From a virus (taxonomy: Duplodnaviria > Heunggongvirae > Uroviricota > Caudoviricetes): 40,979 bases of DNA. The stretch covers positions 1-40,979 of the IMG/VR virus record IMGVR_UViG_2675903468_000003; one strand, 5' to 3'. Made by a program: the position numbers and the translations under genes. Positions 1 through 9,494 of the stretch are shown in pieces; position 1 is the first letter of the stretch, and each line of letters begins with the position of its first letter. Under the pieces are notes generated by a model. It ran no database searches. It was not told the DNA's origin and saw nothing but the letters and a program-made list of their open reading frames with translations.

Positions 1-1158
1 ATGCTCACCGTTAAGCAGATTGAAGCAGCAAAGCCGAAAGAAAAACCATACCGCCTACTCGATGGTAATGGCCTGTACCTTTATGTCCCTGTGTCAGGGA
101 AAAAGGTATGGCAGCTTCGCTACAAGATTGACGGTAAGGAGAAAATCCTGACCGTAGGAAAATATCCGCTAATGACTTTGCAGGAGGCAAGAGATAAAGC
201 ATGGACCGCGAGGAAAGACATCTCGGTTGGCATCGATCCGGTAAAAGCGAAAAAGGCTTCGTCTAACAACAATTCCTTTAGTGCGATTTACAAGGAATGG
301 TACGAGCACAAGAAGCAAGTCTGGTCAGTAGGCTATGCAACTGAACTTGCAAAAATGTTTGATGACGACATTTTACCTATCATCGGCGGCCTTGAAATTC
401 AGGATATTGAGCCGATGCAACTTCTTGAAGTAATCCGCAGATTTGAAGATCGCGGTGCAATGGAGAGAGCCAACAAAGCCCGCAGAAGATGCGGCGAGGT
501 TTTCCGTTACGCTATTGTCACCGGCAGGGCTAAATATAACCCAGCACCTGACCTTGCTGACGCCATGAAGGGATACCGCAAGAAGAACTTCCCGTTTCTT
601 CCTGCAGACCAGATCCCGGCATTCAACAAAGCACTGGCAACATTTTCAGGAAGTATCGTATCGCTCATTGCAACCAAAGTTTTACGCTACACAGCCCTCA
701 GAACAAAAGAACTTCGTTCCATGCTATGGAAGAACGTCGATTTTGAAAACAGGATTATCACTATCGACGCCAGTGTGATGAAGGGACGCAAGATTCATGT
801 GGTCCCGATGTCAGACCAGGTGGTTGAACTTCTCACTACGCTAAGCTCAATCACCAAACCAGTCTCAGAGTTTGTTTTTGCCGGTCGCAACGATAAGAAG
901 AAGCCAATTTGCGAGAACGCTGTACTACTTGTGATCAAACAAATCGGCTATGAAGGTCTGGAAAGCGGTCACGGATTCAGGCATGAATTCAGCACGATTA
1001 TGAACGAGCACGAATGGCCTGCTGACGCTATTGAAGTGCAACTGGCACATGCCAACGGCGGATCTGTGCGTGGGATTTACAACCATGCTCAGTATCTCGA
1101 TAAGCGCAGAGAAATGATGCAGTGGTGGGCGGATTATCTCGATGAGAGGGTGGCATAG
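1..1158 (+). CDS. int: Tyrosine integrase, P4/IntS-like
   Basis: 385 aa. N-terminus MLTVKQIEAAKPKEKPYRLLDGNGLYLYV and C-terminal HGFRHEFSTIMNEHEW...QLAHANGGSVRGIYNHAQY are typical of P4-family integrases; recalled as close to E. coli IntS. Confidence 0.9.
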   Translation: MLTVKQIEAAKPKEKPYRLLDGNGLYLYVPVSGKKVWQLRYKIDGKEKILTVGKYPLMTLQEARDKAWTARKDISVGIDPVKAKKASSNNNSFSAIYKEWYEHKKQVWSVGYATELAKMFDDDILPIIGGLEIQDIEPMQLLEVIRRFEDRGAMERANKARRRCGEVFRYAIVTGRAKYNPAPDLADAMKGYRKKNFPFLPADQIPAFNKALATFSGSIVSLIATKVLRYTALRTKELRSMLWKNVDFENRIITIDASVMKGRKIHVVPMSDQVVELLTTLSSITKPVSEFVFAGRNDKKKPICENAVLLVIKQIGYEGLESGHGFRHEFSTIMNEHEWPADAIEVQLAHANGGSVRGIYNHAQYLDKRREMMQWWADYLDERVA

Positions 1159-1561
1159 CGCCACCTATAAACCGTGCAATAATCAAACTCACATGCGCAT
1201 CGTTGATGATGTATGTGATCACCCCAAACACTGGCGAAGTCACATTGTAGTCACCCGTTGAGTCTGGCATCTCTTCACGCTTACCGTTCTCCTGATTAAC
1301 CAGGTGAGGTTTTGGGTGAATTCGGTAACGCTTTATCCTTAACTCATCACCTATCCTGCAAACAAGCAGATAGCCATCACATGGCTTAAGTGAGCTATCC
1401 ACGACCAGCAAGGCACCATTCTGGATGCCTTCTCGCCAGTATGTTTGCCCTGCTCTCATAAAGTATGTAGATGCTGGATGTTCAACGAATTTTTCATCAA
1501 GCGACATGCTTCGCTCTACGTAGTCTGCTGCTGGTGATGGGAATGCCATGATGAATGCCAT
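1028..1561 (-). CDS. UmuD'-like (S24 LexA/UmuD fold) protein, degenerate; C-terminal extension antisense to int
   Basis: Starts aligned to UmuD about residue 25 (FPSPAADYVE is an exact match; HPASTYF and VFGVI blocks follow), so the RecA-cleavage site is absent. The nucleophile motif GDSM reads GQTY by my alignment. Homology ends near 1180 but the frame stays open to 1028, overlapping the int 3' end. May be a pseudogene. Confidence 0.5.
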   Translation of the reverse strand: MAFIMAFPSPAADYVERSMSLDEKFVEHPASTYFMRAGQTYWREGIQNGALLVVDSSLKPCDGYLLVCRIGDELRIKRYRIHPKPHLVNQENGKREEMPDSTGDYNVTSPVFGVITYIINDAHVSLIIARFIGGAMPPSHRDNPPTTASFLCAYRDTEHGCKSHAQIRRWHVPVALQ

Positions 1562-1566
1562 GCCGA

Positions 1567-1586
1567 TGCTGTTTATACATACAGTA
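1567..1586. promoter_or_regulatory. LexA (SOS) box upstream of the UmuD'-like ORF
   Basis: tgCTGTttatacatACAGta matches the CTGT-N8-ACAG consensus, about 6 nt upstream of the ORF start codon. Confidence 0.6.
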
Positions 1587-1707
1587 TTTATTCATTATGG
1601 ATACAGATCAAGCCCGCCGAAATAGACAGTTACTAACTTCTTGTTTTATTTTAGTATATAGTTATAAGTATGGATATGTACTGAACTCATAGACCGCGTT
1701 GTCGGTT

Positions 1708-2859
1708 ATGGATGTTCTTGATGGTATACTGGTTCTGATAACTATAACTTTGAGGGTTCAGTGCGTGGACAAAGTATTATCGATTCACTACTTACGAGGT
1801 TTGGCGGCACTTGCTGTTGTTGCATTTCATCTTAGACCACTTATTGATAACGTTTATGCACAAAAAAATCTTGGGCAATTACTTTTTTCGCATGGTGATT
1901 TCGGTGTTGATTTATTTTTCATAATAAGTGGTTTTATTATAACGTTAGCTACATCAAATGTGTCTCAAAATTATATTAGTGATTTTATAATAAAAAGGAC
2001 TTTTAGAATATACCCAGTACTAATTATTGGATTGGTTGGTATTTTCTTTCTCATGCCTAATGAGGATTTTTCAAATATTATTCGATCAGCCATACCTTTA
2101 CATTTGGACTACTCTAGGGAAGCGCCATACTTTGGGTATAATTCATTGATAACAGCTTGGACATTAACCTATGAATTATACTTTTACTTCATATTTTTAG
2201 TTGCGATGTTTGTTTCACACAAATATAGAGCTTATATCTGCTCTGCTATTTTGGTGTTACTTGTATTGATATCACAATTATATTTCAATGGTTCTGTCAA
2301 TTTTTCAGGTAATGCTATAGCAAAAATTGATAATTCTTCTTATATGATGGCTTTGATAAAATTCTCATCATCACCGATGTTGCTTGAATTTGTCGTCGGG
2401 ATGATGCTGTATGAGTTTCGAAAGGTTATAATACGCGTACCTTTCGCAAATATAATATCATTTTCATTAGTTGCGTTTGTAATTTGTTCTTTCTTCTCAG
2501 GGTATAAATCATCGCATGGTCCATTGAATTATGGAATTTGGGGGCTTTCATTATTAATAGCGGCATTAGTATATGACTCAAAAAATGGAATAAAAGATAA
2601 TAAGGCATTATCATTTTTAGGCGATATTTCTTATTCGCTTTATATATCGCATGTTCTTGTGATAAAATTCTTTATGCTCCATTTCACAACGTTCCCGTTA
2701 TACTCATCGACATCTGGATTTTCAAAATTCTTATTTTTAATGTTTACATCATTAATTATTTCTTATTTTATGTTTGTTTTTATTGAGAAACCATTTATAA
2801 AATTAGGTAGAAAGGCAATTTCTTCATCATATTTTGTTAAAATGAGAGTCGCAAGCTAA
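1708..2859 (+). CDS. Acyltransferase family 3 integral membrane protein (O-antigen/LPS acyltransferase-like moron)
   Basis: Multi-TM protein with LRGLAALAVVAFH and FGVDLFFIISGF motifs. Visibly AT-rich compared with neighbours. Sits between int and tailspike, where serotype-conversion genes occur in P22/Sf6-type phages. Track ORF begins at a TTG (1699); the first ATG is 1708. Confidence 0.8.
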   Translation: MDVLDGILVLITITLRVQCVDKVLSIHYLRGLAALAVVAFHLRPLIDNVYAQKNLGQLLFSHGDFGVDLFFIISGFIITLATSNVSQNYISDFIIKRTFRIYPVLIIGLVGIFFLMPNEDFSNIIRSAIPLHLDYSREAPYFGYNSLITAWTLTYELYFYFIFLVAMFVSHKYRAYICSAILVLLVLISQLYFNGSVNFSGNAIAKIDNSSYMMALIKFSSSPMLLEFVVGMMLYEFRKVIIRVPFANIISFSLVAFVICSFFSGYKSSHGPLNYGIWGLSLLIAALVYDSKNGIKDNKALSFLGDISYSLYISHVLVIKFFMLHFTTFPLYSSTSGFSKFLFLMFTSLIISYFMFVFIEKPFIKLGRKAISSSYFVKMRVAS

Positions 2860-2910
2860 TGAAGTAATACTTGATGTGCGGCATGTATTGTATACATACC
2901 GCACTTTCAT

Positions 2911-4935
2911 TTAGATTATGCAAACCTCAATCTCTGCCATCGCTGTGTGTGTCGAGCTAATTGCAGCCATGTCAATTGAAACTCGCATACCTCCTGCACC
3001 TGCAGCTGATCGTGATATTGTGAATGAACCGCTACGCCCACCATGATTTTGATGAATAACAACTGGTGTAGATGTTGTCACATTCATAAACTTGATATCA
3101 CATGTTGTCTGATCTCGCCCGTTTGCAGCCACTGTTGGTATGCTAAGCATGTTATATTTCACATAACACTGATGCCCGGCAGGCACAATAAAGAATCCTG
3201 CGTTAGTTACAGTCGTACCGTTAACGCGTGCGCTAATAGTAATCTTTCCATCTTCATGGAACCCATTATAACCAGCCCAGGCTGATGATATTTTAGAGTC
3301 AGGTACTGGCCCAAGAGTTTCACCAGTAGCAGAGTAAGAATTGCTTGAACTGAATATGAATTGACGAGAGTCAAATTCACCAGCACCAGAAGGTGCGACA
3401 ACTTTTAAAACCTCATTCACGGTTTGATTAAAACTGTTTCCTTCGATAAGCAAAGGAAATGCAAATCCTCCAGTCAAAACAGTGGTTGATTTAGAGACTA
3501 AGATAGCTACAGTATTCATTAGGAACCAGTTTCCAGATATGGTTTTTGCACATTCTGATGCCGGGTTTGTTACTGTGGATGGTATCAGGATGGTTAATCC
3601 AACTGGATTTTTTTCAACGGTATTACCAACGAAACTGAGTGTGACATTATAGCCGAACACAGCCCCTTGCACGGTGTTTTCTGATATTGTACATCCATGT
3701 ATTGTCTGGCTTCCGGCGTGGCCGGTTGCGCTTAATATGATACCTGACTTGTTCAGCACGAATTCACATCCAAAAAATCTATTTTGGTCTGAGTAACCAA
3801 AACCTAAACTATTACGATCTATTCTTACACCCACACCACACCATAGGGCACGTACTCCTATGAAATTATTCAGATAAACAGAACCGCGAAGAGTGAATGC
3901 GTGATCAAAATATCTAACATGTATATTTTCGAAAGAACACTCCCTAACATGATAATCTCCACCATTTACTGTTTCATCAACACTGAATGCATATCCAGCC
4001 CAGTCCGTTGATACATTGCTTACCCCTTCTAACATGATGTCCCGGATGACAACTCCGGTTATCCCGTAGGTAAATCTGAAACCGTCATAGGTCGGCACTA
4101 AAACGAAACCGTTAACCCCGACAGGAAATTTTAGACATGGCATTTGGCGAGCAGACACTGCAGATCCGCCATTGCCAGTGATTTTTATTGGTTTGCTGAT
4201 TATCAGTGGTGCTGTAAGATTGTAATATAAAGGTGGCGTTTGTACCGTTAGCGAACCGCCCCATGGGGTTGCATCGATAGCAGACTGAAAACCAGTTGTG
4301 TCATCATCTGTACCATTACCACTGGTGAACCAAACGGTTTTTATCTCATCGCCAATCTGTCGTTTCCATCTTTTTCCAGAAGCATCTACCAGTACAGTCC
4401 CACCGTTATCAGGTGTTGATGTGTCTGAAGCGTCAAGAAAAAACCAACCCTCACCCCCATCATTGTCATGTTCTCTTCCTACGCATTTTATTTGCGTTCC
4501 AGAAACGTTAGATGCCCTTATTTGTTCATAAGTCGCCCCAACAATATAAGACTCACCATCAACTGCTGCTAATTTGTCTATGAATGCTAGCAATGCCTGA
4601 TCAGGGTCATACTTCAGCACATTTGGGAATTTGAACTGCTGTGCACCATACGCATCATATACAGCCATAGAATGGCCTTGCACAGTTACGAATTTGGCAA
4701 TCTGTCCGTTATATACAGGGTAACCAGCGGCGTTAATGATGATTGGCTGCGAAACAGGAACGTGAGAACCGTCTTCATTCTCCACATAAACCTGAATCTG
4801 GTTTTCAGGATTTACCGGGTCAGTGTTAATTTTACCGATATAAATTTTGCCATTGGCAACCGCTTTAAAAGAACGCGCCATAGTGAAAAGTTGCGAAGGC
4901 ATGCTTACCACAACATTTGCGGTGATATCTGACAT
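2911..4935 (-). CDS. Tailspike protein (P22 gp9-like head-binding N-domain plus beta-helix receptor-binding domain)
   Basis: [59 protein letters not shown] matches the P22 tailspike N-terminal domain. Start trimmed from track ORF start 4983 to the MSDITA methionine. Confidence 0.85.
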
Positions 4936-5056
4936 TTCATTGCTCCAGACGAATGATATGATGCAACCATGATGTGATTGCATAACGAAATGGTACTATT
5001 GAGTATTTATCCAGTAGGTTACGATGCCATTCCACCCAACTGGTGAGGCATCAAGG

Positions 5057-5317
5057 ATGTACAGCAAATACGACGAGGCGCAGTTTCACTTGAGACTTCC
5101 GCATGAACTCCACGCGAAAATTAAGCAGCGTGCGAAGATGAATAACAGGTCGCTGAACTCAGAGATAATTGCAGCGATTGAAGAATCATTGGATAAACAA
5201 AGCTCTGCATCAGTTTACATTGACGATGCAGAGCGTATGGCAGAACAACAATCGGATATGGTTAAGAAAATTGTCTTTGATACGCTCAAGAGGCTATATA
5301 AAAAAGACAGTAGCTAA
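5057..5317 (+). CDS. mnt: Mnt-like ribbon-helix-helix repressor (immI remnant)
   Basis: FHLRLPHELHAKIKQRAKMNNRSLNSEIIAAIEESL...AERMAEQQSDMVKKIVFDTLKRLYKK resembles P22 Mnt. Start trimmed to MYSKY. No arc/ant partner is present. Confidence 0.75.
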   Translation: MYSKYDEAQFHLRLPHELHAKIKQRAKMNNRSLNSEIIAAIEESLDKQSSASVYIDDAERMAEQQSDMVKKIVFDTLKRLYKKDSS

Positions 5318-5406
5318 CCATCCGTTACGGAGGATTTATGCAAAGAGATATGCTGAATATTGCGTTCTACATATTTGGTTTTTGCACGTTCCTGGTGTTT
5401 GCGAAG

Positions 5407-7404
5407 CTATTCTGACAACGCATCAGACTTGGCACCCTGAGTAAGGGCGTTAATGGCCTTTTGCGCCTGCTGCATGGCTTTCTCAAACGCTGTTGATCCG
5501 CGTGGGGTGTTTGCCATTCGGAGCATTGCATTTCTGAATAGCTCGCTCTCATAGGCGCGAGTAAGAAGTCCGTAGCTTACTGCTGCGCCAGTTGTCGCCG
5601 GGTTCATTGCCGTCCCATATCCGATAATGAACGGGATGGTTTGCTGCCCTGTTGGTGTTGTTACTGCCGCTTTTGCAGCCTGTTGCGTGGATTGCAGGTA
5701 GTTTTTCAATCCTTTCAGATAAGCGGCTTCCTGACCTTTAAATGTGATGCCAGTCTGGTTTTGCAGGATGTTAAGCTGCCGAAGGAACTGGTCAGGGGAT
5801 CCGCCAGATTTCTCCATCGCCTTTCCAATGATGCCATTGCGCATTTGCGCTCTGCCAACACGACCAACTGAGTTATACAGCGTCTTAATTTCCGATTTGT
5901 TCTTGCTGAATAGCATGTTGTTGACAACTTCCGGCGTCAGGTCGCCTTTCATGAGAACATTCTTCAGCCTGGTATTCTTTAGTTTCGCTGCTTCGTCAGC
6001 GTATACGGCATTGGCCTGCTGATATTTACGGAGAGTATCGTTGCCAAGATTCTGACCAATGGCACCATTGATGTCGTCTGTCATCGCCTTGTAAACTCGC
6101 TGAATGGCAGCATCGGAACGGTTTGGTAACACTGGTCGCTCACCCTTCACGTCCATTCTGAACTGGCTGCGCAGGTCGCTTAATTGCTTCAAATCCAGAT
6201 TTACCGGACCATCAGGACCAGCATTGCGAACAAGCTCATCACGATAGGACTGAAGTTTTGAAATAGTCTCGTTATCAGCAACCTTACCAAGCTTCTGCAG
6301 GTTAGATATTTCTGTATCAATCTGCTGAATTGCTCGCGCAGGCTGAATGTTTACTCCAGCCATAGCATTCTGAACCTGCTCCAGTCGATTACCGGCAGCG
6401 CGACGAATTCCTGATGTTTTCGCTTTAAGGCTGTCAATAATAACCGCTGGATCATACTCACCGAATTTATCAGCAAATCTCTGCACCAACTGGCTTCTCG
6501 CTTCTTGTTGCGTTGCTCTCATTCCGCTTGTGCCAGCCAGAGGGATATTTTCTGCTGTAGTCTGCGCCATTTTTCCGACGCGGGAAGTGGGTTGTAACAG
6601 GTCTGTGGTGTGCAGAGGAACTCCTTCACGCTCTGCAAATCTGATAGCTTGCTGCGCTTCTGGCGCAATAGCACCGCGAACGCCACGATAAGCAGCACCT
6701 AATCCACGTCCAGCAGCGTTAATAGCGCCGCCTGCCAGAACGCCAACACCTAAATCGGTAGCGAGTGCCTCCGCATCATCTTTCATACTGTTTGCAGCAA
6801 GTGATCCAACTGCGTTTTCTGCGAGAAGGCGAGTTGCCCCCTGAGCAATTCGGCCAGCAAGTGTTGGTGCCTGTGTTGCCGCTCTCTCAACGCCAGCAGG
6901 AGTGATGTAAGGCAATGCTTCAGCAAACACCCGGCCCTCTGTCGTTTGTGGAGTCAGCGCGCCTTGCTGAAGGCCAAAATCCTGCTCTAATACCTGCGTT
7001 GTTACTCGTGGCGCTGGTTGATATGTACCATCGCCAATGCCGAGTTTACCGCCAGCCCATGCAGCCGCACTTGTTACAGCATCGGCAACTGATGCAGGTA
7101 TGTTTGCCACGTTCACGCCAGCCTGCACCAGTCCGCGACCAGTCTCTTTTACTGCTTCACCAAGATCAGACATAAATCCGCTTTGCTGTGGTTGTTGCTG
7201 TGCTACTGGTTGTTGTGTCTCCACTGGCCGCACAGATGGCAATGGATAGGCAGCATAGAAAGCTTGCTTAGCCTGCTCTGCATTTTCTCCGGCTTGCGGG
7301 GCCACGACTTCATTGAAGTATTGCTCCTGAGCCTGCGCTTTTTGTTCTGGTGCTAACGCCTGATACTGTGGAGAGGCGATAACATCTTTCCATGCTTTAG
7401 CCAT
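5407..7404 (-). CDS. Ejection/internal protein, P22 gp16-like
   Basis: Size and position match P22 gene order 7-20-16 upstream of the tailspike region. Confidence 0.75.
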   Translation of the reverse strand: MAKAWKDVIASPQYQALAPEQKAQAQEQYFNEVVAPQAGENAEQAKQAFYAAYPLPSVRPVETQQPVAQQQPQQSGFMSDLGEAVKETGRGLVQAGVNVANIPASVADAVTSAAAWAGGKLGIGDGTYQPAPRVTTQVLEQDFGLQQGALTPQTTEGRVFAEALPYITPAGVERAATQAPTLAGRIAQGATRLLAENAVGSLAANSMKDDAEALATDLGVGVLAGGAINAAGRGLGAAYRGVRGAIAPEAQQAIRFAEREGVPLHTTDLLQPTSRVGKMAQTTAENIPLAGTSGMRATQQEARSQLVQRFADKFGEYDPAVIIDSLKAKTSGIRRAAGNRLEQVQNAMAGVNIQPARAIQQIDTEISNLQKLGKVADNETISKLQSYRDELVRNAGPDGPVNLDLKQLSDLRSQFRMDVKGERPVLPNRSDAAIQRVYKAMTDDINGAIGQNLGNDTLRKYQQANAVYADEAAKLKNTRLKNVLMKGDLTPEVVNNMLFSKNKSEIKTLYNSVGRVGRAQMRNGIIGKAMEKSGGSPDQFLRQLNILQNQTGITFKGQEAAYLKGLKNYLQSTQQAAKAAVTTPTGQQTIPFIIGYGTAMNPATTGAAVSYGLLTRAYESELFRNAMLRMANTPRGSTAFEKAMQQAQKAINALTQGAKSDALSE

Positions 7405-8792
7405 TAATCACCCCATAGTGAAGAAAAGTTACTGCTGGCTGCTGGCTGTGATACCTGTGCAGGTTGAGATTGCTGCCGCTGAGATTTACCAACATTAACG
7501 TTATATTGTTGGTTGTAATTGTTGGTGTATTCCTGAATCTCACGAATCGACTGCTGCATAGCCTCCGGGCTTGAATAGTCAACCTGCGGCATCCCCTGAA
7601 AATACATCTTCGCTTCTGCAACGGTGTTAATACCACTGGCACCCATGTCCCTTGCTGCCGCCACACCCTGATTCTGCATTCTGCCCTGAATACGTTGTGC
7701 TGAGTTATATAACTGGCGCTGCTCTTTTCCTGTTAATCGGCTGCGAACATCAGCACCAATTGCTGGATTACCTGCACCGCCTGTCATTCCTGTCATGAAA
7801 TCGAGAGCAGAAGCGTCTGCATTTGCGATCGCGTCGATATCCTTCTTCATGGCATAGTTTTGTGCTGATGCAGACGATGTTGCAGGCGCTGCGATTGAAC
7901 TGGCAGGAACGCGAACCATATTCCCCTCGTTGTCGATGCCTTCGTAGAACGCATTAGCCCCAGCGCCGTGAAGCTTCCCGCCTACCGTTACAGTTCTGCC
8001 ATCTGATAACTGAACTGTACGCTCATCATTCCCAGCGGTTCCTCTTGTTGACGCTCGCTGCATTGCCAAATCCTGCCCGCGTCGCGCAGTAGAAGCAGAT
8101 AAGTCCTGCCCGCGCATCGTGATGTTCTGGCCTCGTGCTGTTAGCGCCTCGCCAGCCTGATTGCTGCGGATTGTCTCTGCAAGTTTTCCGCGATCAATCT
8201 CACGACCAGCCATCTTGTCCTGAACATTGAAGTAATCAATCGGACCAAGAGCAGCCATTCCAAGGTGATCAACAAACTCACCAAATCCTGAGGGATTCTG
8301 CTGATACATCTGAGCAACGTTGTTAGGATCAACACCGACGCGAGTCAGTTCCTTGGCGTTGTTTTGCAGCCATGATTGCATTGCTTCTGGAGACGATGCC
8401 GCAAGACGTGCGCCAGCCGCTAAGGTGCCGATAGAATTACGCTGATCTTCATCAATGAATCCCATGCCTTTACGAACGGATTCAATCTGTTCTGGATATT
8501 GAGTAGCCAACTGACGCAAAGCACCGCGATCACCAGACGCATAAGCATTAGCGTATGCCTGCTGAAATTCTTTCTGCCGCTGAGCCTGCTTTTCCTGCTG
8601 AAACACCCCCGCAATACCTGAAAGGCCTTGCAAAGCAGTCAGCCCAACATTGTTAGCGCCTGAACGCTCAATATCATTGTTCTGCCTGATAAGCTGAAGC
8701 GTATTGCCGATGTCATTTACGCTCGGAGCGTTTGAGTTGACGCCGCCGATACCAGCCAACAATCCGCCGTTTGTTCCTTGCCAAGTAGCCAT
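7404..8792 (-). CDS. Ejection protein, P22 gp20-like
   Basis: 462 aa, between the gp7-like and gp16-like genes; its stop overlaps the next gene's start. Confidence 0.75.
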
Positions 8793-8801
8793 GATTACCC
8801 C

Positions 8802-9494
8802 TTAAAACAACGAGCCAAGCAATCCGATACCAGCACCAATGCCAGCGCCCCAAGGTGTTGATGTTCCCAAAAGGCTGGCAAGACCTGCACCGGCAATCGC
8901 ACCAGACGTTCCGCCACTAATTGCTGTCTGAAGACTTGATGGTTTGTTGGCATTAGCAGCGGCAAGAGCTGCGCTTTGCTGTGCAATGCTGCTCATGTTG
9001 TTGGCGTACGTCTGCCCGGCGTTTGCCTGACCTTGCAGCGCACCAAGCCCAACGTTTGCCAGATTGTTGTAATTGCTCATCTGGCTTGATAACCACGACT
9101 GACCGAGAGTCGGAGCAATCGTAGCCAGTTGATTGCTTGTAGCTGTCGAACCAAGTCCGCCAGTCGCCTCCGCAGCAGCAAGACTCTGGTAACGAGCCTG
9201 AGCTGCAAGGTCTTTATACTGCTGAGAATTGTAATACTGATTAAGTGCCTGCCCCTGACCTTCTAAACTGGAAAGATTCTGAAGCTGGTTAACATACTGC
9301 TCCGCAAGCGGCGTGAACGGAGCAAGGTTTTTCATGATCGTCTGCCACTGCTGATTTTGCAGGTCTGCTGCATACTTCTGAGCTTCTGCGGCATACTTTG
9401 CGCTTTTATCAGAACTGCCACCTTTCCCGCCTTTTTCAGGGCAATAAGGTTCCTCGCCGCGCAGTTTTCTGCCCAGCTTAAATGCATATAACAT
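8802..9494 (-). CDS. Ejection protein, P22 gp7-like
   Basis: 230 aa; N-terminus MLYAFKLGRKLRGEEPYCPEKGGKGGS resembles P22 gp7. Confidence 0.75.
   Translation of the reverse strand: MLYAFKLGRKLRGEEPYCPEKGGKGGSSDKSAKYAAEAQKYAADLQNQQWQTIMKNLAPFTPLAEQYVNQLQNLSSLEGQGQALNQYYNSQQYKDLAAQARYQSLAAAEATGGLGSTATSNQLATIAPTLGQSWLSSQMSNYNNLANVGLGALQGQANAGQTYANNMSSIAQQSAALAAANANKPSSLQTAISGGTSGAIAGAGLASLLGTSTPWGAGIGAGIGLLGSLF

Follow-up and report, generated by a model that had tools for sequence, protein, structure and literature searches.

Background

What does a single, markedly AT-rich acyltransferase gene do between the integrase and the tailspike of a temperate phage? The question is raised by the IMG/VR virus record IMGVR_UViG_2675903468_000003, of which positions 1 to 40,979, here called the window (the whole stretch of DNA that was analysed, 40,979 nucleotides), hold the genome of a 41-kb P22/Sf6-like (Lederbergvirus-type) Escherichia coli prophage. 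An initial annotation of this DNA had noticed an acyltransferase-3 (AT3) gene at a site where serotype-converting genes occur, and had proposed that the lysogen carries a modified lipopolysaccharide (LPS) or O-antigen, which would also block superinfection by phages using the same receptor. In this study I arrive, with a probability of roughly 0.7, at the reading that the gene encodes an O-acetyltransferase of lysogenic conversion, by which the phage's own receptor glycan, probably the O-antigen, is masked. Phage-borne AT3 O-acetylases beside a tailspike are already well known, and the gene on its own is an ordinary lysogenic-conversion moron, a rare and uncharacterised example of its kind. 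The most interesting by-product of the analysis is the co-transfer of the acetylase and the receptor-binding domain (RBD) of the neighbouring tailspike as one mosaic cassette, among three phage types and at least two host genera.

Results

The linkage of the gene with the tailspike RBD is the strongest functional evidence, as the context is informative here, whereas the sequence cannot name the substrate. The elements concerned are the following.

1765..2859, + strand: AT3-only acyltransferase coding sequence (CDS), 364 amino acids (aa) from GTG 1765, Pfam PF01757; start conserved in the loci L001, L002 and L003
2911..4935, - strand: tailspike, 674 aa, P22-type head-binding domain, then a beta-helix receptor-binding (depolymerase-type) domain
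1566..4560, no strand: exchangeable cassette of leader, acyltransferase, terminator and tailspike RBD, from blastn matches to L001, L091 and L002

The closest relatives of the gene are rare, and they always lie next to a tailspike with an RBD that matches the one in the window. The copies compared in most detail are these.

L091: epsilon15-like prophage of Citrobacter farmeri GCA_052423515.1, identity of acetylase/RBD 94%/96%
L001: lambdoid siphovirus-type prophage next to lepA, identity of acetylase/RBD 91%/91%
L002: epsilon15-like prophage of C. amalonaticus, identity of acetylase/RBD 84%/89%

The shared DNA has its left end at the leader or at the start codon of the acyltransferase gene (1566 or 1765), and its right end (4291 or 4560) at the junction of the backbone-specific N-terminal domain and the RBD of the tailspike: L001 matches positions 1566-4291 of the window (89.3%), L091 matches positions 1765-4560 without a gap (92.1%), and L002 matches from 1765 to at least 3486 (81%). 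Within this segment, a 1.3-kb block at 2365-3700 is shared with L091 at 99-100% identity, between flanks of 73-91%; it takes in the 3' half of the acetylase gene, the hairpin between the two genes and the tailspike's C-terminal part. The 5' half of the acetylase gene is only 73-85% identical to L091, and with respect to L001 the pattern is reversed. The alignments point to a very recent exchange of this block between genera and between phage types, with one breakpoint inside the acyltransferase gene. Because the shared segment is a mosaic in which a near-identical block spans both 3' ends, recombination is read here as moving both convergent genes together repeatedly, between phage genera and between Escherichia and Citrobacter.

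Cluster look-ups added further genomes, namely E. coli K71, another E. coli, C. farmeri, C. amalonaticus, C. freundii and Pluralibacter, and in E. coli K71 (KRR61357.1/KRR61358.1), the other E. coli (MCV8568557/8) and C. farmeri the NCBI accessions of acetylase and tailspike are consecutive. The carriers of the cassette include C. amalonaticus GCA_040164765.1. Protein clusters of at least 84% identity, which give membership only, include Pluralibacter, with the acetylase and part of a tailspike, and E. albertii, with the tailspike alone. Over the whole family, 12 of the 13 contexts examined are beside a receptor-binding gene. Distant members have this position in Pseudomonas phage IME307, Salmonella SI8 and E. 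coli MRE162, O111:H2 and TW14425, and so have the 55-60% identical homologues in epsilon15-like prophages. The sole context of the 13 that lies away from a tail gene, L088 (Logan SRR28790988, 3303-6336), holds two AT3 genes in tandem, one of which has 61% identity with the window protein; the surrounding stretch of chromosome shows no recognisable phage genes and could be what is left of a prophage. Where the RBD is more diverged, the acetylase is missing, both in common E. coli P22-like prophages (87% RBD) and elsewhere (78%, 71% and 54%).

The enzyme travels with one particular RBD, and the glycan bound and cleaved by that domain is therefore its most likely acceptor. I also raise, tentatively, the possibility that acyltransferase and RBD form one mobile cassette for recognising and masking the receptor, with 3' halves that are exchanged as a unit across P22-like, lambdoid and epsilon15-like phages and across Escherichia and Citrobacter. 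The unit exchanged may then consist of AT3 helices 6-10, the shared terminator and the C-terminal beta-helix of the tailspike, so that acceptor specificity in the acetylase and glycan specificity in the tailspike would be a genetically matched pair.

The rarity of both partners is apparent from several searches. Near-identity DNA searches with the gene gave nothing in 50,697 phage records and, in 5,426 complete E. coli genomes, an 86-bp match to humD only, while a distant blastn search retrieved only 65%-identical fragments in 33 genomes. A scan of IMG/VR with the gene gave one relative (30%), and in the species-representative genomes the matches listed were mostly distant relatives of at most 41% identity, which were not used in the context statistics. 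The tailspike RBD has no match of at least 85% nucleotide identity in the same 5,426 complete E. coli genomes, and the IMG/VR scan with this domain retrieved a single copy at 87%, which lacks the acetylase, as well as three at about 55%.

The tailspike is recognised in Pfam by PF09008 (E=9e-66) and Beta_helix, and it is 100% identical to an NCBI E. coli protein starting at ATG 4935, where the head-binding domain also begins; position 4935, and not 4983 of the maximal open reading frame (ORF), is most likely the start of this CDS. The AlphaFold model is a right-handed beta-helix, and its PDB neighbours are phage tailspike depolymerases, both O-antigen-specific (Sf6, CBA120 TSP2, P22, HK620) and capsule-specific (Acinetobacter, Klebsiella K2). 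The best PHROG of the full-length protein would make it a colanic-acid-degrading tailspike, a label that I rejected, as it comes from the N-terminal head-binding domain only and is gone when the receptor-binding part is searched alone.

The family of the acyltransferase, as initially assigned, was confirmed over nearly the whole profile: the protein matches PF01757 (Acyl_transf_3) at profile positions 2-324 of 326 (E=3e-32, 112.4 bits against a cut-off of 31), and it matches PHROG 3333, 'O-acetyltransferase', with E=1e-64. No family or equivalog in NCBIfam, no defence model in PADLOC and no sequence in the PDB matched the acyltransferase. I read conservation from an alignment with 61 homologues, on which the AlphaFold model was built as well, and two motifs stand out.

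1795..1830, + strand: R-X10-H motif, codons R11 to H22, in transmembrane (TM) helix 1; acetyl-CoA contact and catalytic histidine by motif definition (PMC9833829)
1996..2007, + strand: RXXR motif, codons R78-T-F-R81, at the cytoplasmic face of TM helix 3; motif definition from PMC9833829

H22 and R78 are invariant among the homologues and R11 and R81 are at least 90% conserved, with W132/E137 and E341 conserved likewise. Mutation has shown these motifs, of which R-X10-H is Arg14/His25 in OafB, to be essential in OafB and Oac (PMC9833829). The model is confident, with a predicted local distance difference test (pLDDT) score of 91.7 and a predicted template modelling (pTM) score of 0.91, and it has ten TM helices (5-26, 46-62, 71-96, 131-150, 155-175, 193-217, 228-245, 256-274, 280-306 and 319-~341), of which helices 3 and 4 are connected by a long loop; at the C-terminus there is a basic helix. 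Hydropathy agrees with these ten helices, the standard AT3 core, and the 12-TM type given in the initial annotation has to be replaced accordingly. Both the N- and the C-terminus would be cytoplasmic, judged from where RXXR lies and from the K/R-rich tail at the C-terminus. Only 23 residues follow TM helix 10, and the protein thus has no 11th TM helix with a periplasmic SGNH domain behind it, as in the fused acetylases OafA, OafB/GtrC family II and OatA; Pfam gave no match to an SGNH domain in the protein, and PHROG 6705, a 647-position O-antigen acetylase, is matched over its positions 12-348 only. The enzyme lacks the SGNH domain and is therefore 'AT3-only' like Oac, unlike OafA/OafB. To my knowledge, no AT3 structure has been solved. 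The sole significant fold neighbours in the PDB are cryo-EM structures of human HGSNAT, the acetyl-CoA:alpha-glucosaminide N-acetyltransferase (Foldseek probability 1.0, template modelling score ~0.46), which fits the proposed TmAT superfamily (PMC12423673).

The gene is the strongest GC outlier of the window and its only block below 40% GC. Its GC content, which had been described as markedly lower than that of its neighbours, is indeed 30.7% (25.8% at third codon positions), compared with 48.2 ± 2.7% in equal-sized windows elsewhere (z = -6.6), and the homologues examined are likewise AT-rich (31-36% GC). In comparison with the cassette copies, purifying selection is strong, with a ratio of nonsynonymous to synonymous substitution rates (dN/dS) of 0.04-0.08 at a dS of 0.5-1.5. 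Around and within the gene I distinguish the following elements.

1566..1764, + strand: AT-rich non-coding leader, 87% identical to the lambdoid prophage L001; blastn boundary at 1566
1699..1764, + strand: upstream in-frame extension (TTG 1699, ATG 1708), not conserved
1752..1756, + strand: Shine-Dalgarno sequence GAGGG, 8 nt upstream of GTG 1765; a reading from sequence
1862..1868, + strand: A7 homopolymer, codons 33-35, a frameshift-prone site
2876..2904, no strand: hairpin between the convergent acyltransferase and tailspike genes, then TTTCATTT; likely a shared terminator

The ORF of 1699-2859 in the initial annotation does exist, but its TTG 1699 marks the maximal ORF only, and the conserved start is GTG 1765. 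As GTG 1765 is common to all close homologues (which are 364 aa long), GAGGG lies upstream of it, and L001 has an in-frame TAA directly 5' of the GTG, the alignments give a protein of 364 and not 386 aa; the purine-rich Shine-Dalgarno sequence is aligned across all four loci compared, and the extension at 1699..1764 is probably not translated. The upstream neighbour humD is divergent and there is no co-directional gene upstream, so the gene's own promoter must lie in the 1566-1764 leader. On the other side, the hairpin (free energy -17.5 kcal/mol, z = -3.2) retains its stem pairing via compensatory changes in L001, L002 and the E. coli prophage locus L092, and is likely a terminator shared by both convergent genes. 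Judged by these signals, the gene is most likely an independent 'moron' transcription unit that is expressed by the prophage.

Two kinds of regulation were considered and rejected. The sole CTGT-N8-ACAG box of the window, which could indicate control of the acetylase by LexA, is at 1569-1584 at the start of humD, about 180 nt from GTG 1765, and at least one such match arises by chance in 42% of shuffles. Phase variation of the Dam/OxyR type, as upstream of gtr/oafB, is not suggested by the leader either, as there is only one GATC in 1562-1764. A search for repeats around the gene gave short, chance-level repeats only and no insertion-site duplications, and Rfam had nothing above threshold in 1100-3000.

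The remaining genes at this end of the prophage are listed below, together with the maximal ORF.

1..1158, + strand: IntS-type integrase, from Pfam, at the prophage end
1028..1549, - strand: humD/umuD-like S24 gene, NCBIfam HumD equivalog (178 bits), likely start ATG 1549
1699..2859, + strand: acyltransferase-3 maximal ORF, between integrase and tailspike
5024..5317, + strand: Arc/Mnt-like gene, from Pfam

The structural genes of the window are about 95% identical to those of the coliphages IME10 and APC_JM3.2 and of HK620-like phages. The cargo between the integrase gene (int) and the tailspike is restricted to the humD-like gene and the AT3 gene, and no ORFs of gtrA (flippase) or gtrB (bactoprenol glucosyltransferase) size with such domains were seen in 1159-2910, which leaves no gtrABC glucosylation cassette of the kind in P22 and SfV there. 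The humD-like ORF continues for about 50 aa where the HumD profile has ended, and its 3' end overlaps that of the integrase gene by 131 nt, which suggests that the 3' end of this gene has been rearranged. The product of 5024-5317 is a 97-aa ribbon-helix-helix protein of the Arc/Mnt type, encoded divergently from the tailspike; this is the immI-like region known from phages of the P22 type. A 99.9% identical prophage (L090, Logan DRR588727) is integrated next to yfdC, mlaA and fadL, a position consistent with the argW attachment site, although argW and the att sites themselves were not located in the window; argW is the site used by Sf6, HK620 and Kapi1 (bioRxiv 10.1101/2021.04.09.439263). Among the complete E. 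coli genomes that match positions 1-5400 of the window, the slot between int and tailspike of IntS-type P22-like prophages is a hot spot for cargo. An annotated acyltransferase occupies it in 13 of the 25 best-matching genomes, and the other cargo among these 25 comprises an SGNH/GDSL hydrolase with HumD, a serine O-acetyltransferase, insertion sequence elements and hypothetical genes.

Discussion

In this study I found a standalone AT3 gene that appears to be its own transcription unit beside the tailspike and the int region of a temperate phage. Its intact motifs, the selection acting on it, its own expression signals, its slot and its co-inheritance with an RBD all support the proposal of a lysogenic-conversion acetylase. 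I infer the substrate, and by analogy also acetyl as the acyl group, the O-antigen as its acceptor, the expression in lysogens and the exclusion phenotype.

A number of observations weigh against this reading. No characterised enzyme is close to the protein, with identities of at most 31% to the characterised O-antigen acetylases. The fold of the tailspike is common to depolymerases of O-antigens and of capsules, and thus does not settle the class of the glycan. A promoter scan of the AT-rich leader found promoter-like hexamers no more often than expected by chance, and none was assigned. Moreover, the near-identical prophage L090 has A6 in place of the A7 tract, which truncates the ORF to a 268-aa call; the A7 tract is also present in the Citrobacter copies L002 and L091, and is interrupted in L001. 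The A6 could be a real inactivating mutation, switching by slippage or an assembly error, and the idea that the tract serves as an on/off switch for conversion is a weaker addition to the proposal. Furthermore, related prophages have lost the gene. The loci L092-L094, from common E. coli P22-like prophages (e.g. GCA_015675465.1, beside yfdC/mlaA at the same chromosomal site), have an 87% RBD and lack the equivalent of window positions 1323-2876. At ~9029-9130 they show what is left of humD, joined to the final ~12 nt of an acyltransferase ORF of the L001 type and to the hairpin, and the acetylase gene has therefore been deleted in these 87%-RBD loci. Because of the frameshifted copy in a near-identical prophage and the deletion in related ones, the gene is dispensable and not always active, an accessory gene as expected of a moron.

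Alternatively, the same partnership of enzyme and tailspike could act on a capsule (a K antigen or an O-antigen capsule) or on another depolymerised exopolysaccharide, which I consider rather unlikely. CUS-3 is a P22-like coliphage that has a capsule-specific tailspike, and the neighbours of the tailspike fold include capsule depolymerases of Acinetobacter and Klebsiella phages. The spread of the cassette over E. coli, C. farmeri, C. amalonaticus, C. freundii and Pluralibacter, and of the RBD over E. albertii as well, could likewise be taken to favour a capsule. However, the colanic acid label vanishes with the receptor-binding part alone, the rarity of the RBD in E. coli genomes is easier to reconcile with a rare serotype than with a common polysaccharide, and the characterised phage AT3 enzymes beside P22- or epsilon15-like tailspikes all act on the O-antigen (PMC9558356). 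It is improbable that the enzyme modifies a glycan unrelated to the receptor, such as the enterobacterial common antigen (like WecH), periplasmic glucans (like OpgC) or peptidoglycan, and would be a fitness trait of the host, as this would leave unexplained both the co-inheritance with the RBD in three types of phage, together with the near-identical block over the 3' ends of both genes, and the 12 of 13 family contexts beside receptor-binding genes. AT3-only enzymes with such roles do exist in E. coli, i.e. WecH and OpgC (PMC9558356), and WecH scores about as well as Sf6 Oac on the family profile (32.3 vs 27.7 bits), but there is no NCBIfam equivalog match and the similarity to OpgC is not significant.

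I give very little credence to the explanation that the gene is a decaying or silent passenger without function in this prophage. Very AT-rich DNA is often silenced by H-NS, and the A6 frameshift in a 99.9% identical prophage, as well as the deletion scar in related E. coli prophages, are what a passenger would show. However, the copy in the window is intact with all motif residues present, its Shine-Dalgarno sequence, start codon and terminator are conserved, and the low dN/dS over the dS range given above amounts to long-term selection.

If the product is an O-acetyltransferase that masks the phage receptor, its mechanism could be as follows. The ten helices would form a pore in the membrane, which cytoplasmic acetyl-CoA would enter, to be held by R11, R78 and R81 in analogy with OafB/Oac (PMC9833829). 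H22, near the periplasmic face, would then hand the acetyl over to a hydroxyl on a sugar in the repeat unit of a surface polysaccharide, on the periplasmic side. As acceptor, the O-antigen is the most likely candidate, or in broader terms whichever glycan is bound and cleaved by the tailspike of this phage. With the acetyl group in place, the serotype of the lysogen would be changed and the phage's own tailspike sterically blocked, as in Sf6, phiV10 and BTP1, which would prevent superinfection and would keep released virions from being lost on lysogens.

Should this be true, lysogens would carry an O-acetylated surface polysaccharide that is not predicted by serotyping from gene clusters, with consequences for phage host range, the matching of phages in therapy, serology and vaccine epitopes. 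The linkage itself is a concrete example of receptor recognition and receptor masking that travel together, and suggests that substrates could be assigned to many uncharacterised AT3 genes via their partner tailspike. If the cassette is indeed one unit, pairs of AT3 and RBD could predict receptor glycans and the acetylation that blocks them.

Comparison with known systems

I compared the protein with the characterised enzymes Sf6 Oac (OacA), phiV10 Oac, OafB, WecH and OpgC, both pairwise and with the family profile.

Sf6 Oac: 31% over 153 aa (E ~1e-6); family profile 27.7 bits
BTP1 OafB/GtrC: 25% over 90% of the length; family profile 54.6 bits
phiV10 Oac: pairwise not significant; not detected with the family profile
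E. coli WecH: 33% over 61 aa; family profile 32.3 bits
OpgC: pairwise not significant; not detected with the family profile

The comparison with characterised O-antigen acetylases, which the initial annotation had recommended, thus finds all of them remote, with OafB, itself an O-antigen acetylase, as the best. In a comparison with OacA and phiV10 Oac only, orthology to a characterised Oac was not found, and what they have in common with the protein is the superfamily. With the same family profile, uncharacterised prophage AT3 genes reach 257-467 bits; the best homologues are therefore not non-LPS acyltransferases, which would have spoken against the initial proposal, but uncharacterised prophage AT3 genes beside tail-fibre or tailspike genes. 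By these scores the gene is a member of a distinct, uncharacterised AT3 subfamily, the substrate of which cannot be named from sequence.

To the same subfamily belong prophage AT3 genes annotated as 'ExoZ-like exopolysaccharide production protein', which are all uncharacterised, differ in hosts and tail proteins, and lie next to int and convergent with a tail gene, as in the window. They are found in Pseudomonas phage vB_PaS_IME307 (42%, 415 bits) and in the Salmonella phages SI8/Si3/SF6 (29%, 257 bits, full length). The former (L005, MN096267, Detrevirus, 4938-8173) is the best match among sequenced phages, and its acyltransferase is convergent with a 694-aa tail-associated gene; because of IME307, the subfamily and its pairing with tail genes reach beyond the Enterobacteriaceae. 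Human HGSNAT, the only solved fold that matches the model, also transfers acetyl from acetyl-CoA across a membrane, but with 13-15% sequence identity this eukaryotic lysosomal enzyme is a fold analogue and not a member of the AT3 family.

OafB (GtrC family II) of the Salmonella prophage BTP1, the best-scoring characterised relative of the AT3 domain, has the R-X10-H and RXXR motifs as in the window protein, and the gtrC of BTP1 is convergent with the tailspike, as here. However, OafB continues with an 11th helix and a periplasmic SGNH domain to 640 aa, whereas the window protein stops after TM helix 10 at 364 aa. BTP1 OafB/GtrC protects against BTP1 (PMC4413052; PMC9558356). In phiV10, a Uetakevirus of E. 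coli O157:H7, a convergent pair of tail fibre and oac lies beside the lysis cassette, which is exactly the arrangement of the 84-94% identical copies of the window gene in the epsilon15-like prophages of Citrobacter, and its oac, the gene of an O157 antigen acetylase, is annotated as 'acetylates the host O-antigen; functions in superinfection immunity'.

The closest parallel in layout is the Shigella phage Sf6, which has the same phage backbone, with an int 94-97% identical at the DNA level, and an identical slot of int, own promoter, AT3 gene (oac), terminator and convergent tailspike. The initial claim that the gene occupies a slot for serotype-converting genes is borne out here, as its position is that of the proven Sf6 oac. 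Both Sf6 Oac and the window protein are standalone AT3 proteins with ten TM helices and RXXR, and Sf6 Oac is an O-antigen 2-O-acetylase of rhamnose that confers seroconversion and immunity to Sf6. In contrast to Sf6, the window has an extra humD-like gene in the slot and a different tailspike RBD, and because this domain differs, a different glycan or a different position of acetylation is to be expected. For the acetylases of all three phages, Sf6, phiV10 and BTP1, modification of the O-antigen and protection from the phage's own tailspike have been shown or annotated (PMC9558356; PMC4413052).

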